Positions 18,171-24,432 of a DNA stretch of 34,551 nt are shown one piece after another. The notes beneath the pieces are model-generated. The model did not search any database and was not told the origin of the DNA. It saw only the letters and a list, made by a program, of their open reading frames with translations. This DNA comes from an uncultured Barnesiella sp. (GTDB lineage Bacteria; Bacteroidota; Bacteroidia; Bacteroidales; Barnesiellaceae_A). The stretch's first letter is position 1; the number at the start of each line of letters is the position of its first letter. The stretch lies in the NCBI GenBank assembly GCA_904502265.1, contig CAJGDT010000001.1, positions 1-34,551 on the forward strand, given 5' to 3'. Position numbers and translations under genes: made by a program.

Positions 18171-18614
18171 TTACCCTTTTCGGAATCTTGATGCCATCAA
18201 AATGCCTGTTGTTGACAATATTGTTATTGCCATGATAATGAGATGGTATGCCCACGAAGGTGTTGATTTGCTCTCTATCTCATTGGGTGGATGTCGGTAT
18301 GGAATGGAATCGATGGTGTGTATTTCTTGCATTTGTATAGTTATGCTGTCTTGTCGAGGTTCGATGGTGAGAGTGTGGTGTAGAGTACCGTTTGAGATAG
18401 TGGCCATGCTGTGTGCTCCATTGCCTTGCAGCAGACTTGTGGTGTCGGAGGTGCGATTGCTGTGTGATTCGCCTTGGGTAACTATCTCTATTATAGTGTC
18501 TCTCAGGGTTATGTACTCTTTGTGACTCCTATCGGTGGGAATGTATATGGTCTTGGTACATGCTATTGTGCCGGCGAGGCCAAGGATTGTAACAATAGTG
18601 ATTAGTTGTTTCAT
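18171..18614 (-). CDS. lipoprotein with C-terminal transmembrane anchor (unimolecular-spanin-like topology)
   Basis: The start is trimmed to MKQLITIVTILGLAGTIAC (lipobox-like Cys), giving 147 aa. The middle is Thr/Ser/His/Ile-rich, with a C-terminal TM WAYHLIIMAITILSTTGILMA followed by SRFRKG. The ATG overlaps the endolysin TGA (ATGA). Confidence 0.6.
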   Translation of the reverse strand: MKQLITIVTILGLAGTIACTKTIYIPTDRSHKEYITLRDTIIEIVTQGESHSNRTSDTTSLLQGNGAHSMATISNGTLHHTLTIEPRQDSITIQMQEIHTIDSIPYRHPPNEIESKSTPSWAYHLIIMAITILSTTGILMASRFRKG

Positions 18615-19018
18615 GCGTGTATCACCTCCCCTCTGTTGTTGCCATTGCGGCAGTAGCTTACATGTATCCACGCCGGACCTTGGCTATTGCCGCGTTCCCA
18701 TATCAATTGATCGAAGGGCATATTGAGTAAAATGTCAAACAATTTTCGATTTACTTGTGGCGACTCGGTGCATATATCTGCAGCTTCTCCTGTAAGATGT
18801 TGACTATTAGGTACTCCGCCTACACATTTGTTTAGTGTTTTGCTGCGATATCCGCTATTCACGCGAATGGGTTTTCGCAATGTTTCGCGAGCCGGGTCGA
18901 GTATATGCACCGCAAGTGCTGTAAGGTTTTCTGTAACTTCGGGGGTCGGAGTGTTGTCTATATGTAGTTGTCGAGCCAGAGCACTGTCTGTAAGTTCGGC
19001 TATTGTAAAATATTTCAT
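18611..19018 (-). CDS. peptidase M15 family (D-Ala-D-Ala carboxypeptidase-like) phage-type endolysin
   Basis: The start is trimmed to MKYFTIAEL, giving 135 aa. The pattern SGYRS...NKCVGGVPNSQHLTGEAADI...WIHVSY matches the Peptidase_M15_3 zinc-site pattern (H...D...H). It has ATGA overlaps on both sides. Confidence 0.82.
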   Translation of the reverse strand: MKYFTIAELTDSALARQLHIDNTPTPEVTENLTALAVHILDPARETLRKPIRVNSGYRSKTLNKCVGGVPNSQHLTGEAADICTESPQVNRKLFDILLNMPFDQLIWERGNSQGPAWIHVSYCRNGNNRGEVIHA

Positions 19019-19248
19019 ACGCCACCTCCGTTCTTGTCGTCTGTTGTGTGTGTGCGTACTCGGTAGCTGTAGTCTACCCCGAATAAAGCTCCGGCAAAGG
19101 TTACAACTTCGCCAAAAGCAACCAATACACTCTGATGAATTTCGCCCTCGGGATGTGTCCAAAATCCCGAAAATATAAGTACTATACCTGCCAGGCACAT
19201 GACGCATGCTGTGGTGAGGTGGACTGCCAATTTATTTATATTTGTCAT
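19015..19248 (-). CDS. holin-like small membrane protein (2 TM, charged C-terminus)
   Basis: The start is trimmed to MTNINKLAVHL, giving 77 aa. It has two hydrophobic spans (LTTACVMCLAGIVLIFSGFW and SVLVAFGEVVTFAGALFGV), then RVRTHTTDDKNGGGV. It sits immediately upstream of, and is translationally coupled to, the endolysin. Confidence 0.6.
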   Translation of the reverse strand: MTNINKLAVHLTTACVMCLAGIVLIFSGFWTHPEGEIHQSVLVAFGEVVTFAGALFGVDYSYRVRTHTTDDKNGGGV

Positions 19249-19374
19249 ACTCTTATTTTTTACTGCAAAGATGCAATGCAATAAGAGCTGACGAGTGCGA
19301 TAGAGAGAATTTGGGAAATAATATTTTGTTGTAGAATTTTTATAAAAACACTTGCATATATATTTATATGTGTG

Positions 19375-19382
19375 TAAATTTG
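19375..19382 (+). promoter_or_regulatory. Bacteroidota -7 promoter box TAAATTTG upstream of the GrpE-like gene
   Basis: Matches TAnnTTTG and ends 32 nt before the ATG at 19414. Confidence 0.5.
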
Positions 19383-19413
19383 CCATAATAATAACCTTTT
19401 ATTTCTATTTACC

Positions 19414-20220
19414 ATGGGATTATTTGGAAACAATAATGAGAGCGAATTGAGAAGCTTTGAGCAAACTATAGAACGTTTGAAATCGGAGTATGCTTCTCTT
19501 GAGGAAGAAAATAGAGCAAAGGATATCGAGATAGAACGCTTGAAAAAAGTGATAGAAGGTATGGGTGCTCAAGAAGAAAAAGCTTTCCCGACACCTGAGG
19601 TACCTACAGAGGAAGCCCCTGTGAATGTGCCGAGTGTCGATTATACTCCGGCATTAGAGGCACTCAATGCTTCGCTTAACGAGCTCAAGGAGCAAGCCAT
19701 TGCACAAAAGGCCTTGATGGAGGAGCATAAAGTATTGCTCGGATATCGCGACCGACAAGATGACAACATGCGTGCCATGCACAAGGAGTTGGAGCAGTAT
19801 AAGAGTGACTTCTTTGTGAAGATAACTCAACCCTACTTGAAAGCACTGCTTGACTTGCATAGCCGCTTCAATAGCACTTATACACACTTTGATCAACTCG
19901 ACAATTCGGAATGTAACTGGGAGGAGTTGTATGGCAATCTTATGAAGGAGTTTAAGAGCGCCATTATGGCCTTGAGTGACCGTGCATACAACGACTTTGG
20001 TATAGAATACTACGAGCCCGAGATAGGAGAGGAGTTTAATCGCAAGTTGCATCAACAACTGCAAGGCGATTCGGTAGAAACAACCAATCCCGAACTAAAC
20101 ACCAAGATAGCCCAAGTGGTGTGTGGTGGTTTTATCAATATCGACACCGAGAAGGTAGTGCGTTATGCACGTGTGAAAGTGTATAAGTATACCGAGGCAA
20201 CCCCGACAACAGAATCTTAA
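19414..20220 (+). CDS. GrpE-like nucleotide exchange factor (divergent, accessory)
   Basis: 268 aa with an N-terminal coiled-coil (RSFEQTIERLKSEYASLEEENRAKDIEIERLKK) and a Pro/Glu linker. The C-terminal part aligns by eye to the GrpE four-helix bundle and beta domain (...FGIEYYEPEIGEEFNRKLHQQL...VVCGGFINIDTEKVVRYARVKVYK versus GrpE G..FDP..H.A...GY....V.R.A.V.V.K). Confidence 0.7.
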   Translation: MGLFGNNNESELRSFEQTIERLKSEYASLEEENRAKDIEIERLKKVIEGMGAQEEKAFPTPEVPTEEAPVNVPSVDYTPALEALNASLNELKEQAIAQKALMEEHKVLLGYRDRQDDNMRAMHKELEQYKSDFFVKITQPYLKALLDLHSRFNSTYTHFDQLDNSECNWEELYGNLMKEFKSAIMALSDRAYNDFGIEYYEPEIGEEFNRKLHQQLQGDSVETTNPELNTKIAQVVCGGFINIDTEKVVRYARVKVYKYTEATPTTES

Positions 20221-20248: not shown

Positions 20249-21841
20249 ATGGCAAACGATAAAAGTAGAGCCGTATATGGCATAGACTTGGGTACAACAT
20301 TTAGTTGTATTGCACAAGTAGACCGATATGATCAAGCAGTGGTACTTCGCAACTTCGAAGGCGATGCAACTACTCCTTCGGTAGTGTACATCGAGTCGGA
20401 GAGTAACATGATTGTGGGTAAAGAGGCTAAGAACCAATTGGCTGTGGAGCCCGAAAAGACTGTAGCGTTTATCAAACGCGAGATAGGTAATGATGAGGCT
20501 TTCGACAAGAGCAAGAATACAACACCTATGCACCTCGACCCTGTTGAGATCTCGGCGCTTATTCTTAAGAAACTTGTACAAGATGCCAATAACTTGGGCG
20601 AAAATCCCGAGCCTATCACCGACGTTGTTATTACTTGTCCCGCATACTTTGGTAACAAAGAGCGCTTGCAAACCAAACAAGCCGGTATCAGTGCCGGTCT
20701 CAATGTGTTGGCTATTATCAATGAGCCTACTGCAGCCGCTATCTCGTATGGATTGAAGGTCGACGAGCGTCGCACTATTCTTGTATATGACCTCGGTGGT
20801 GGTACATTCGACGTTACCATTATTGCCGTTAACGGTGGTGCTATCAAGGTTATTGCTACCGGTGGTGACCACCACTTGGGTGGTGTCGACTGGGATACCG
20901 AGTTGGCTAAATATGTGCTCAACACATTCAACTCTCAAAATGGCACTTCTTATGAGTTCGATTCACTCTCGCCCAATGCTCGTTATGAGTTGTTGCTCAA
21001 TGCCGAGAACTGGAAGAAGAACCTTACTGCCAAGCAAAAGGTTAAGATTAACTTCTCGTATGAAGGTAAATCGGTTAACTTTGAACTTCCTCGTGAGACA
21101 TTTAATGCCATTACCGAGGATCGCTTGAATGAGACTATCGATGCAACACGCAAGATTATCGAGCTTGCTGAGGAGAAGGGCTATAAGAAAATCGACGAGA
21201 TTATCCTTGTAGGTGGTAGTAGTAAGATGCCTCAAATCAAGGATCGCGTAGAGGCTGAGTTTGGCTTGCCTACTCACATTACCGACCCCGACGAGTGTGT
21301 GGCTAAGGGTGCTGCTATCTTTGCCATGAACGAGGCTTATGATGCTGCCTTGAAGAAATCGGAGGAAGAGGGTACTAAGGCTCCCGAACCTCTCATGACC
21401 AAGCGTACTCGCGTAGTTAATGTAACAAGTAAGACCTACGGCCTTGGTCTTATCGATAACCAAGTGGGTAACATGATTTTTGCCAACACAACATTGCCCG
21501 TATCGCGCACTCGTGTGTTTGAGACAGTACGCGACGGTCAAACCGGTGTAACATTGCCCATCTACGAGAGTGACTTTACCGATGAGGAGAAAGACCAAAC
21601 TGTTGAAGACCGCTTCTGTAACTTGGCTACCGAGGATATATCGGAATTGAAGTTGACAGGCAACCACCCCAAAGGAACCGAGATTAAGGTTACATTCAGC
21701 ATTAGCGAAGAGGGTATCCTCAGTGTTAACGCTACTCGCGAAAGCGATGTAATAGACTTCCAATTGAAGGTGGCAGGTGTGAAGAGTGAAGATGAGTTGA
21801 GAAAGTCTCAAAACTTCATTGCTAACGCCACTGTTGAATAA
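20249..21841 (+). CDS. Hsp70 family protein, lidless (HscC-like length), accessory paralog
   Basis: 530 aa with the full actin-like NBD (GIDLGTTFS, DLGGGTFDV, LVGGSSKMPQI) and an SBD-beta region. It ends without the alpha-helical lid or an EEVD-type tail. Confidence 0.92.
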   Translation: MANDKSRAVYGIDLGTTFSCIAQVDRYDQAVVLRNFEGDATTPSVVYIESESNMIVGKEAKNQLAVEPEKTVAFIKREIGNDEAFDKSKNTTPMHLDPVEISALILKKLVQDANNLGENPEPITDVVITCPAYFGNKERLQTKQAGISAGLNVLAIINEPTAAAISYGLKVDERRTILVYDLGGGTFDVTIIAVNGGAIKVIATGGDHHLGGVDWDTELAKYVLNTFNSQNGTSYEFDSLSPNARYELLLNAENWKKNLTAKQKVKINFSYEGKSVNFELPRETFNAITEDRLNETIDATRKIIELAEEKGYKKIDEIILVGGSSKMPQIKDRVEAEFGLPTHITDPDECVAKGAAIFAMNEAYDAALKKSEEEGTKAPEPLMTKRTRVVNVTSKTYGLGLIDNQVGNMIFANTTLPVSRTRVFETVRDGQTGVTLPIYESDFTDEEKDQTVEDRFCNLATEDISELKLTGNHPKGTEIKVTFSISEEGILSVNATRESDVIDFQLKVAGVKSEDELRKSQNFIANATVE

Positions 21842-21909: not shown

Positions 21910-24432
21910 ATGGATAAGACACTTCTAAAGCAGAAAGTTGCCGAGTGGGAGAAGGCATGCAGTTTCTTTGCCACCCCCGACATTGTTAAGCAGCTCGATA
22001 AAGACGAGAACGAGGCAATTGTATTTCTGAGCAACTTCTGGCGTGACAAAGAGTTTGACAAGGAGGCATGCCAAAAGCGTATCGACCTACTCAAGCATTG
22101 CGATAAATTGCACTCGAACAATCGTGAGATTATCGAAAAGAGCAAGACTCTGCGAGGTATTGCTCAGACATTTTATACCAAGGATTTCGCATCGTTTGAC
22201 GAGTTTCGCAAAGAGTTGGGATGGACGCCGGGAACAAAGAAAGCTCCTATACCCGAGCCTAAGAAGGCGCCTGTGCCTACTCCCAAGCCCGACTCTACGC
22301 CGCAACATGACGAGGCTCTGATAGCTACTAATGTACAGAAGTGGTCGCGTTCATTGCAGTTCCTTAAGAGTGAGGAGATCACGCCACAGCTCGACACCGC
22401 CGAGATTACGGCTATTGAGGTGCTGAGCGATATGTGGCGACGTCCTTCATTTCAGCCTGATATGAAGGAGGAGGCTGCCGATATGGTAAAGGTGTTGATA
22501 AGCTCGCACAAGTTGCACTCGAACAATCGCGAGATTATTGAACATAGCAAGAACTTATGTGCGGTGGCGCGTAAGATGTATGATGATAAGAAGAACTTCG
22601 ATATCTACAAGAAAGCCCTTTCGGAGTATTATAAAAATAATAAACCTCCTCGTCGCGAGCAGCCTGTTCCTGAGAAGAAAAAGAAGCCGATACCTCAATC
22701 ACCTCGTAGAGATAGCGAGTTGATTATACGCGATGTGCTCTTTGCCGATACAACCTACAACAATGAGATTATCAAGGACTTTGGCAAGGTGCTCTTTACC
22801 AATACGCAGTATATAGTGCCTCGCCTGTCAGTGTCGAGCGAGTACTATGGTACTGAGACGATAGAGGTAATCTTGAAATATCCCAATGGCGAAACTTGTA
22901 GCTATGATACCGAAGTGACATTCAGCGGTAAGGGCGATTATACATTGTCGGGTTGGGGTAGCAAGAGTGGAACATCGTATGCATCATACGGTTTCGTTGA
23001 GTACACCTTCAAGTGCAAGGGTAAGAAGTTGTGGCAAGGTCATGTTACCATAGGTCGCGACGCTAACAGCCCACGCTTGCCTGAGATATCGACTGTTAAG
23101 TTTGGTGCAGTTGATTACGACGGTAACATCAAGGTGAACTTTGGCTCGCCCATTCCTACCGGTATACCCTACTTGAAGCCTCGCATTGTGGTGTCGAACA
23201 ACTTCCGTGGTGCGGTTACTATCAATATAACCTTTGAGTATAAGGATAAGGATGCCGATCGTACATCGAGCGAAATCAGTATCCAAGGCCCCGGCGAATA
23301 CGACTTGACGGGTTGGGGTCGTCGTGATTGTACCTATTGGAAAGAGAATGAGACTGTGAAGGTTACCTTTAGTTGTGAGGGTAAAGTGCTCTATACGACT
23401 AATGTGAAAATTGGTTCGGGCGGTGGCTGGAGTCCCAAGAAGACTTATAATACACCGCATCGACGCAGTAGCTCGGGCGACTCATTGTGGGCACGTTTTG
23501 ATGATAAGATTCGCTCTATAGGTGAGAGGCTGGAGGATAGTAATGAGATATTGACATCAATAATTTCTGTTATTCTCTTTTTGGGCTTGGCAGCCGGTGT
23601 AGTATTTGAATGGATCGATGAAGGATTTTGGGCTGCCCTTATTACAGGTGCAGTAGGCTTTGTAGTGTTATCGTTTGTTATCGCTATAATGAGCTTTATT
23701 ATGCCAATAATAGTCTTCGTGCTGCAATTGGTGTTTAGGAATGCTTGGACATTCCTTATCGCGCTTATTCTTCTCTTTGGCCCATCGATAGCTGCTCTTG
23801 TGGGTGGCGTGGCGAGTGCTATATTTGCCCGTGATGATAGTGACGAGCAGGTTATTGAGCAAGTAGTAGCAATGCCTACATCAACTTACTATTGCACAGC
23901 GCAATCGGGTGTGATAGTGCGTCAAAGTCCATCGAAAACGGCTACACAATTGGGTGGATTGCAGTATAACGAAGAGGTGGAAGTATATGAAATAGAAAAC
24001 GGATATGCCCGCATCGACTACTATGGTCAAGAGGCTTGGGTCAGCAGCCAATATATTACCATGAGTGAGGGCGAGGCTTTCTTGATTGAAAATGCTAAAC
24101 GTAAAGATGTGAAAATCCTTGCAAGTGGATTACAATATGAGGTAGTGAAGAAGGGAAAAGGCAAGAAACCCTATGCGCATAGTGATATAAAGTGTACCTA
24201 TACCTGCTCGTTGCCCGACGGAACGGTCTTGGATAGCGCTACCGAGCCTATGGAGTTTAACCTGGGTGGTGTGATAAAAGGCTTTGCCGAAGGTGTTATG
24301 CAGATGAAGGAAGGTGCTCGATACATCCTGTATGTGCCGGCCAATTTGGGCTATGGTAATAATGCCGTCGGCAATATACCACCTCACGCTACTGTCATAT
24401 ACGATGTGACGCTTGTAGAGATAGTAGACTGA
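21910..24432 (+). CDS. multidomain membrane protein: 2x J-like helical modules, 2x beta-rich repeats, TM bundle, SH3b, FKBP-type PPIase
   Basis: 840 aa with internal duplications (aa ~25-100 versus ~160-245; aa ~270-382 versus ~390-502). A hydrophobic block spans aa ~547-640. There is an SH3b-like segment (YYCTAQSGVIVRQSPS...GYARIDYYGQEAWVSSQYI) and a C-terminal Mip/FklB-type FKBP domain (LASGLQYEVVKKGKG...FNLGGVIKGFAEGVMQMKEGARYILYVPANLGYG...VIYDVTLVEI). Confidence 0.85.
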   Translation: MDKTLLKQKVAEWEKACSFFATPDIVKQLDKDENEAIVFLSNFWRDKEFDKEACQKRIDLLKHCDKLHSNNREIIEKSKTLRGIAQTFYTKDFASFDEFRKELGWTPGTKKAPIPEPKKAPVPTPKPDSTPQHDEALIATNVQKWSRSLQFLKSEEITPQLDTAEITAIEVLSDMWRRPSFQPDMKEEAADMVKVLISSHKLHSNNREIIEHSKNLCAVARKMYDDKKNFDIYKKALSEYYKNNKPPRREQPVPEKKKKPIPQSPRRDSELIIRDVLFADTTYNNEIIKDFGKVLFTNTQYIVPRLSVSSEYYGTETIEVILKYPNGETCSYDTEVTFSGKGDYTLSGWGSKSGTSYASYGFVEYTFKCKGKKLWQGHVTIGRDANSPRLPEISTVKFGAVDYDGNIKVNFGSPIPTGIPYLKPRIVVSNNFRGAVTINITFEYKDKDADRTSSEISIQGPGEYDLTGWGRRDCTYWKENETVKVTFSCEGKVLYTTNVKIGSGGGWSPKKTYNTPHRRSSSGDSLWARFDDKIRSIGERLEDSNEILTSIISVILFLGLAAGVVFEWIDEGFWAALITGAVGFVVLSFVIAIMSFIMPIIVFVLQLVFRNAWTFLIALILLFGPSIAALVGGVASAIFARDDSDEQVIEQVVAMPTSTYYCTAQSGVIVRQSPSKTATQLGGLQYNEEVEVYEIENGYARIDYYGQEAWVSSQYITMSEGEAFLIENAKRKDVKILASGLQYEVVKKGKGKKPYAHSDIKCTYTCSLPDGTVLDSATEPMEFNLGGVIKGFAEGVMQMKEGARYILYVPANLGYGNNAVGNIPPHATVIYDVTLVEIVD

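Follow-up and report, generated by a model that had tools for sequence, protein, structure and literature searches.

In order to follow up an initial annotation, we analyzed a gene for a predicted multi-domain membrane protein in a 34,551-nucleotide stretch of DNA (GenBank contig CAJGDT010000001.1; hereafter the window) from an uncultured gut Bacteroidales bacterium. The gene is a single open reading frame (ORF) at positions 21910-24432 of the plus strand and encodes 840 amino acids (aa); the span 22717-24432 covered by the initial annotation corresponds to aa 270-840 of this 840-aa protein. A GrpE-like gene and an Hsp70 gene closely precede it on the plus strand, and the gene of the 840-aa protein, which we call the partner, comes third in this tight set. 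Pfam assigns domains to the last quarter of the partner only. An AlphaFold2 (AF2) model calculated on a 16-sequence alignment, having a mean predicted local distance difference test score (pLDDT) of 78 over the full length, shows two helical bundles, two all-beta domains, a helix at aa 526-543, three long helices, a small beta barrel and an FKBP fold, with four disordered linkers between the parts. The features of the three genes are as follows, with the basis of each in brackets.

19414..20220, plus strand: GrpE-like gene, first of the three-gene module (Pfam GrpE, E 6.5e-10)
20249..21841, plus strand: lidless Hsp70, 530 aa (Pfam HSP70, E 5.7e-104, profile positions 1-501 of 599)
21910..22224, plus strand: helical N-module 1, aa 1-105, presumed Hsp70-facing head (AF2, all-helical; duplicate of module 2)
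22309..22641, plus strand: helical N-module 2, aa 134-244 (AF2; duplicate of module 1)
22714..23067, plus strand: beta-sandwich repeat 1, aa 269-386 (identity to repeat 2; AF2, eight strands)
23077..23430, plus strand: beta-sandwich repeat 2, aa 390-507 (identity to repeat 1; AF2)
23485..23538, plus strand: conserved juxtamembrane amphipathic helix, aa 526-543 (AF2)
23542..23622, plus strand: transmembrane helix 1, aa 545-571, predicted direction cytoplasm to periplasm (hydropathy, AF2, flank charges)
23626..23733, plus strand: transmembrane helix 2, aa 573-608, predicted direction periplasm to cytoplasm (AF2, single 36-residue helix)
23743..23823, plus strand: transmembrane helix 3, aa 612-638, predicted direction cytoplasm to periplasm (AF2)
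23905..24057, plus strand: SH3b domain, aa 666-716, predicted periplasmic (Pfam SH3_3, E 8.8e-13)
24064..24144, plus strand: Mip/FkpA connecting-helix stub, aa 719-745 (Pfam FKBP_N, positions 71-97 of 97 only)
24166..24417, plus strand: FKBP prolyl-isomerase domain, aa 753-836 (Pfam FKBP_C, E 1.3e-19)

Our homologue search over 5.8 billion proteins returned 28 relatives from independent assemblies having the same N-terminal two thirds, and a scan of GTDB species genomes gave 16 loci, all of them in metagenome-assembled genomes of ruminant-gut Bacteroidales. The order GrpE-like gene, Hsp70 and partner is identical in 16/16 loci and the surrounding genes vary among the distant ones, the three-gene module being found in several different genomic neighbourhoods over these 16 species loci. 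The private Hsp70-GrpE pair is in every case accompanied by the gene of a membrane protein, whose periplasmic part very likely comprises a foldase and a wall-binding domain. We call the Hsp70 lidless because its Pfam HSP70 match ends at position 501 of 599. It is 80-98% identical over the 16 loci, whereas the partner is only 41-84% identical; the GrpE-like gene, upstream of Hsp70 in all 16, shows 40-84% identity. Conservation along the partner is highest in the heads (70 and 66%) and lowest in the transmembrane block (41%). Close homologues carry the database names 'FklB' or 'hypothetical' only. Contigs from gut metatranscriptomes contain pieces of all three genes with 0-2 mismatches, the flanking regions being uncovered, and none of these RNA contigs falls on positions 18900-19480. 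Since the contigs match all three genes and not the neighbouring regions, the three module genes are probably expressed.

The hydrophobic block of the partner spans aa 547-640 (94 residues). The initial annotation had found the number of its spans ambiguous, and we agree that this is so by hydropathy alone; AF2 predicts three helices. In order to have a measure of flank charge, we averaged the number of Lys and Arg residues over the 16 orthologues, which gave 2.6 in the 20 residues before helix 1, 0 in the acidic four-residue loop after it, 1.4 in the end of helix 2 together with loop 2, and 0.8 after helix 3, where there are 4.8 Asp/Glu. Homologues carry Lys/Arg in the last third of helix 2. 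As Lys/Arg fall on the predicted cytoplasmic sides, the charge pattern fits an in-out-in-out arrangement. Among the relatives that a beta-repeat profile brought up, many have a single span and no signal peptide, in the order head, Lys/Arg-rich flank, transmembrane helix, SH3_3, beta repeats and TonB_C, which means that their SH3_3 side must be outside. Among the orthologues, the tail after SH3b may be an FKBP, an FKBP plus a TlpA-like thioredoxin, a thioredoxin alone, TonB_C, an extra beta repeat, or nothing. TonB_C and TlpA-type thioredoxins are periplasmic domains, and relative P0108, with a three-helix block 33.5% identical to that of the window protein, ends in TonB_C. An N-in, C-out topology is what we consider likely for the 840-aa protein. 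The odd number of spans and periplasmic C-terminus put forward earlier as a possibility are the best-supported predicted topology, on the AF2 helices, the Lys/Arg distribution, the single-span relatives and the TonB_C and thioredoxin-type tails. In the juxtamembrane helix, W527 and G538 are invariant and F530 is nearly so, and similar sequences precede the transmembrane block of kinase-headed relatives; in helix 3, W613 and F615 are invariant and N611 nearly.

The SH3b domain scores 48.7 bits against a cutoff of 27 for SH3_3, is modelled by AF2 as a small all-beta barrel with pLDDT of about 80, and stands behind the transmembrane region in nearly all relatives examined. FKBP_C scores 70.7 bits against a cutoff of 21.1, and the structures of Legionella Mip and E. 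coli FkpA, to which the domain is 36-40% identical, fit this part of the model at a root-mean-square deviation of ~1.1 A (Foldseek E about 1e-11). Matches to FKBPs dominate the Foldseek result for the full-length model, which is uninformative on the other domains. The FKBP12 pocket residues Y26, D37, V55, I56 and Y82 are kept and the changes F36L, W59F and F99Y are conservative; the pockets of some orthologues show Y82F, W59L/V or D37E. The initial annotation had predicted SH3b followed by a canonical FKBP of the Mip type. Both domains stand above their Pfam cutoffs, but of the connecting helix no more than the last part remains and the Mip/FkpA dimerisation helices are missing, so that by sequence the domain belongs to the FKBP family, as a predicted prolyl isomerase, and not to the dimeric Mip/FkpA subgroup. 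Although the window protein shares the similarity of the FKBP domain and the connecting-helix end with Mip, FkpA and FklB, it differs from them in having no dimerisation helices and no signal peptide and in the SH3b domain and transmembrane block that precede the FKBP. The FKBP domain makes up the C-terminal 15% of a membrane protein of 840 residues, and orthologues have other domains in its place. NCBIfam matches of the 840-aa protein to FkpA, FklB and BamJ are all below threshold. With regard to the Bacteroidota FKBPs of the type IX secretion system translocon and the beta-barrel assembly machinery, the BamJ match is sub-cutoff, and the SprA-bound prolyl isomerase 6h3i_B matches in both sequence and fold. 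FKBP is found in 14 of the 28 matches, a thioredoxin-type tail in 6 and both in 4. TonB_C is absent from the window protein and present in orthologue P0019 (locus L008) and relatives P0067, P0108, P0055 and P0119.

The two beta-rich repeats described earlier were borne out. They align without gaps over 110 residues with 33% identity (E 5e-21), and AF2 predicts each of them (aa 269-386 and 390-507) as an eight-strand all-beta domain, with pLDDT of 93 in the single-repeat model and 75-90 in the full-length model. The motif G.G.Y...GWG is invariant in 32 repeat copies. A profile search over 1.84 billion representatives returned 251 clusters, and in 75 sampled proteins the repeat co-occurs with SH3_3 (16), BACON (14), MORN (10), protein kinase (6) and TonB_C (6). 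The majority of the sampled proteins begin with a signal peptide or lipobox, hence the domain is mainly extracytoplasmic; it is an unannotated beta-sandwich family, mostly in secreted Bacteroidota proteins. The repeats stand before the transmembrane block in the window family and on both sides of it in P0023, P0037, P0085 and P0104. Being sited on either side of the membrane and mostly secreted, the repeat would seem to be a general binding module and not one specific to the cytoplasm. Of the cytoplasmic beta-repeat pair in the initial annotation, the predicted side is retained here, and the notion of a specifically cytoplasmic domain is given up since most members are secreted. A four-gene version of the operon at L020:891-7770 encodes GrpE, Hsp70, a soluble 599-aa protein and a 715-aa membrane paralogue ending in SH3b. 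The soluble paralogue consists of one head and four beta repeats with no transmembrane segment, and this make-up shows that head and beta repeats form a cytoplasmic unit. Comparison of the repeat pair with the PDB by sequence gave only a chance-level match to a phage cement protein (E 0.086), and Foldseek of the repeat against viral structures gave none below E 1e-3. The best Foldseek matches in the PDB were the lipid-binding beta-sandwiches UNC119, PDE6-delta and RhoGDI (E about 1e-3, TM-score 0.5-0.58; the best E is 1.3e-3, with a query TM-score, TMq, of 0.57). However, the root-mean-square deviation is about 5 A and the identity 5-10%, which corresponds to a generic Ig-like sandwich with no evidence of a lipid pocket.

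The helical N-modules 1 and 2 are 38% identical (E 2e-21), and all 32 N-module copies have H68, S78 and K79 (module 1 numbering). They had been described as J-like, a description that we could not uphold. The DnaJ family is absent among the Pfam matches of the 840-aa protein at E up to 0.1, a PDB search with a profile of the 32 copies gave no J-protein at E up to 10, and the modules fail as J-domains in having H-S-N-N in place of the HPD motif. Since the heads gave no J-domain signal in these sequence comparisons, it is gene order that links the partner to an Hsp70 cycle. By profile comparison the N-module and the head of P0108 are unrelated, so the heads that accompany lidless Hsp70s are not all of one family.

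The membrane part of the protein belongs to a wider modular family. The segment aa 520-720, which comprises the juxtamembrane helix, three-helix block, linker and SH3b, has homologues in P0108 and P0060 and, among proteins with a kinase head, in P0046 and P0113. The identity is 27-37% overall and 27-34% for P0108, P0046 and P0113, with E from 1e-22 to 1e-39. P0113, with its homologous transmembrane block, and P0055 are the kinases of vWA-PP2C-kinase triads, an assignment that covers the two kinase-headed proteins with readable contexts. These triads have been described as TerY-P signalling or stress switches, and one form as a stand-alone antiphage system (PMC11090510). Four distant relatives with other heads stand directly after a lidless Hsp70, namely P0085 (L023), P0037 (L026), P0067 and P0108. 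At L026:563-6774, Hsp70 and the 1007-aa partner P0037 are followed by a YkuD L,D-transpeptidase and then by an SH3_3/SH3_4 protein, which hints at a link to peptidoglycan. The operons of P0067 and P0108 (L024:1-9728 and L028:1-9220) encode a kinase, vWA, PP2C, MORN, an unknown 300-aa protein, lidless Hsp70 and a partner that carries SH3_3 and TonB_C; in these operons an Hsp70 module is combined with a TerY-P-like triad. In view of the kinase- and TIR-headed relatives, we consider the chassis of head, beta-sandwiches, transmembrane region, SH3b and variable periplasmic tail to be reused with signalling-type heads. A word-based homologue search with the transmembrane-SH3b region alone found only close orthologues, hence no census of the cassette is given.

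Two further observations concern this family. The 635-aa protein P0095 has a TIR_2 head, one transmembrane helix and two copies of the same beta repeat, and is possibly an envelope-sensing TIR protein. At L033:76-11272, vWA, PP2C and a kinase-headed membrane protein having the same transmembrane-SH3b cassette are followed by six consecutive radical-SAM genes.

Our reading, which we hold with about even confidence, is that the partner is a receptor-like transducer that links the envelope to its private Hsp70. We call it receptor-like because the transmembrane block and SH3b also sit as one cassette behind Ser/Thr kinase heads in vWA-PP2C-kinase triads. On the cytoplasmic side, two unannotated helical modules would take the gene slot where a J-protein is expected, beside the private lidless Hsp70 and GrpE, and two beta-sandwich domains and the conserved juxtamembrane helix would follow these heads on the same side. 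The conserved three-helix block would lie in the inner membrane, with SH3b and the Mip-type FKBP in the periplasm, where SH3b and the swappable tail may bind peptidoglycan or unfolded or proline-rich envelope proteins. The juxtamembrane helix and three-helix block would then relay the periplasmic state across the membrane, and the relayed state would decide whether head and beta-sandwiches engage the private Hsp70-GrpE at the membrane. The binding to Hsp70, the direction of signalling and the ligands are all parts of the scheme that we infer.

Several points weigh against the transducer. The FKBP and thioredoxin tails are enzymes or foldases and fit an effector role no less than that of a sensor. 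In one case, the single-span relative P0027, there is no Hsp70 adjacent. The fold matches of the modelled beta-sandwich are generic and do not allow a ligand to be deduced, and the presumed contact with Hsp70 comes from gene order, the head having no detectable J-domain. In addition, helix 2 of the window protein is a run of 37 uncharged hydrophobic residues with a central Pro, which as a hairpin would give four spans and a cytoplasmic C-terminus. As for the coupling of an Hsp70 cycle to a prolyl isomerase that the initial annotation had proposed, it is pure conjecture; the swapping tails and the kinase-headed transmembrane-SH3b proteins point to a sensor or transducer instead.

Another explanation, which we find doubtful although it merits some weight, is an inside-out chaperone relay. 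Here the tether would park Hsp70 at the inner membrane face, where it would hold envelope proteins or hand them over, the periplasmic FKBP or thioredoxin would fold those same proteins once exported, and SH3b would fix the complex to peptidoglycan. DnaJ consists of a J-domain, a G/F (glycine/phenylalanine) linker and two substrate-binding beta domains, and the head, linker and two beta-sandwiches of the AF2 model resemble this layout. The tails are often foldases (FKBP in 14/28, thioredoxin-type in 6/28), the FKBP pocket is largely intact, and DjlC and DjlB, with which E. coli HscC works, are anchored in the membrane (PMC8215388). However, several orthologues have no foldase tail and end with SH3b only or with TonB_C, and the pocket residues drift in the family through the Y82F, W59L/V and D37E changes given above. 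Furthermore, the same transmembrane-SH3b cassette serves kinase heads, which are signalling outputs, and nothing in the three short helices is channel-like.

We regard as unlikely a defence or stress (conflict) system in which the periplasmic part would detect phage attack or wall damage and Hsp70 would be the switch or effector. Such a role has already been proposed for Hsp70 in other Hsp70-containing conflict systems. PADLOC run on the three proteins matched the GrpE-like protein only weakly, at chance level, and neither Hsp70 nor the partner at all. The suggestion draws on the wider family, in which distant relatives lie in operons with the vWA-PP2C-kinase triad and MORN, TerY-P-like triads have been reported as stress switches and stand-alone antiphage systems (PMC11090510), and the beta repeat follows a single transmembrane helix in a TIR-headed protein. 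The partner also evolves much faster than Hsp70 (41-84% against 80-98% identity). Nonetheless, the module stands among housekeeping genes in 16 species, where neither further defence genes nor a toxin-type effector were evident, and an IMG/VR scan contained no relatives and only an unrelated FKBP fragment. A Peptidase_M15_3 gene and a gene for a small two-transmembrane protein do lie divergently upstream in the window, yet this cassette is linked to the module in the closest relatives only.

An ATP-driven trans-envelope machine, in which the private Hsp70 cycle on the cytoplasmic head would be coupled, by mechanical or allosteric means, via the three-helix block to periplasmic SH3b and an FKBP, thioredoxin or TonB_C tail, seems improbable to us. 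If it were true, cytoplasmic ATP would power work in the ATP-free periplasm, and the module would do with an Hsp70 what TonB/Tol does, or act like the mitochondrial import motor but across a bacterial inner membrane.

Quite improbable, too, is an even number of spans, with four helices, a cytoplasmic SH3b and FKBP, and the whole protein acting as a membrane-anchored cytoplasmic co-chaperone. The 37 uncharged hydrophobic residues in helix 2 with Pro599 near the middle would allow it, cytoplasmic FKBPs and SH3-like domains exist, and AF2 is not a topology predictor. On the other hand, the AF2 helix 2 is continuous with pLDDT of about 80, and four spans would either leave a last helix of ~14 residues or bury the conserved residues 610-613 (N611, W613). 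The TonB_C-tailed P0108 and L008/P0019 have a homologous block and require an odd count, SH3_3 lies on the far side in single-span relatives, and the C flank is strongly acidic. Finally, the artefact against which the initial annotation had cautioned, in which assembly or gene calling would have fused two genes, one for an Hsp70 partner and another for an FKBP, found no supporting point and is refuted. The ORF is present without interruption in data from many samples that were assembled independently, the genuine fusion is carried whole by 16 species genomes and by many metagenome contigs, and the RNA contigs fall inside the ORF.

We searched the literature for this architecture and found no description of it. 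To our knowledge, bacterial Hsp70 systems have been described as cytoplasmic, and the known membrane partners DjlA and DjlC have no folded periplasmic part. In its working, the module would be most like the arrangements of HscC with DjlC/DjlB and of DjlA. E. coli HscC is a specialised Hsp70 whose gene neighbours that of a membrane-anchored partner, and this partner is considered to bring it to the inner membrane (PMC8215388). Similarly, the dedicated Hsp70 of the module adjoins a predicted membrane partner, being directly upstream of it in 16/16 loci. The window system differs in that its head has no detectable J-domain, it has its own GrpE, and its anchor is a conserved three-helix block instead of a tail anchor, to which large folded SH3b and FKBP domains, predicted periplasmic, are attached. 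The PknB/PrkC-type receptor Ser/Thr kinases and the TerY-P kinases share the logic of a cytoplasmic head, a transmembrane region and a wall-binding ectodomain, and the kinase-headed relatives in TerY-P triads have the homologous transmembrane-block and SH3b cassette. In contrast to the PknB/PrkC type, the window protein has no kinase domain; it has an Hsp70-associated helical head, and SH3b in place of PASTA. In the mitochondrial import motor (Pam18/Pam16/Tim44, mtHsp70 and Mge1), membrane-embedded J and J-like partners hold Hsp70 and a GrpE-type exchange factor (Mge1) at the membrane; the module differs from it in having no translocase, and the resemblance would be functional only. We also considered the Hsp70-GrpE conflict systems, which are GTPase-centred and occur in actinobacteria and firmicutes (PMC7159879), and rejected them as the identity of the module for these same reasons.

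No Hsp70 system known to us shares this build, and we take the module as a predicted variant of membrane-tethered Hsp70 partners. We know of no description of a counterpart of the Cpx or Rcs envelope-stress pathways in Bacteroidota, and the module is a concrete and testable candidate for communication between envelope and cytoplasmic chaperones in this phylum. The analysis also defines three unannotated building blocks, namely the helical head, the ~120-residue beta-sandwich (251 clusters) and the cassette of three-helix transmembrane block and SH3b. Of these, the cassette is found again behind kinase heads, and the beta-sandwich occurs with a TIR head as well.

Upstream of the module, three genes are divergent from it.

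18171-19248, minus strand: a 77-aa two-transmembrane protein, Peptidase_M15_3 (E 4e-16) and a 166-aa protein (Pfam)

The 166-aa protein has no Pfam match. This M15 cassette adjoins the module only in the nine closest loci, and a functional link to it as a 'lysis-like' cassette was set aside, the synteny being restricted to closest relatives. In the Hsp70 gene (20249-21841), we noted by eye the motif VLAIINEPTAA. We take the E. coli DnaK counterpart to be VKRIINEPTAA, in which case the J-contact arginine R167 would be an alanine in the window Hsp70. Metatranscriptome depth rises about 100-fold over the segment 20646-20839 of the same gene. Because the matching reads have loose ends on both sides, this peak represents a conserved Hsp70 motif of other organisms and not local expression.

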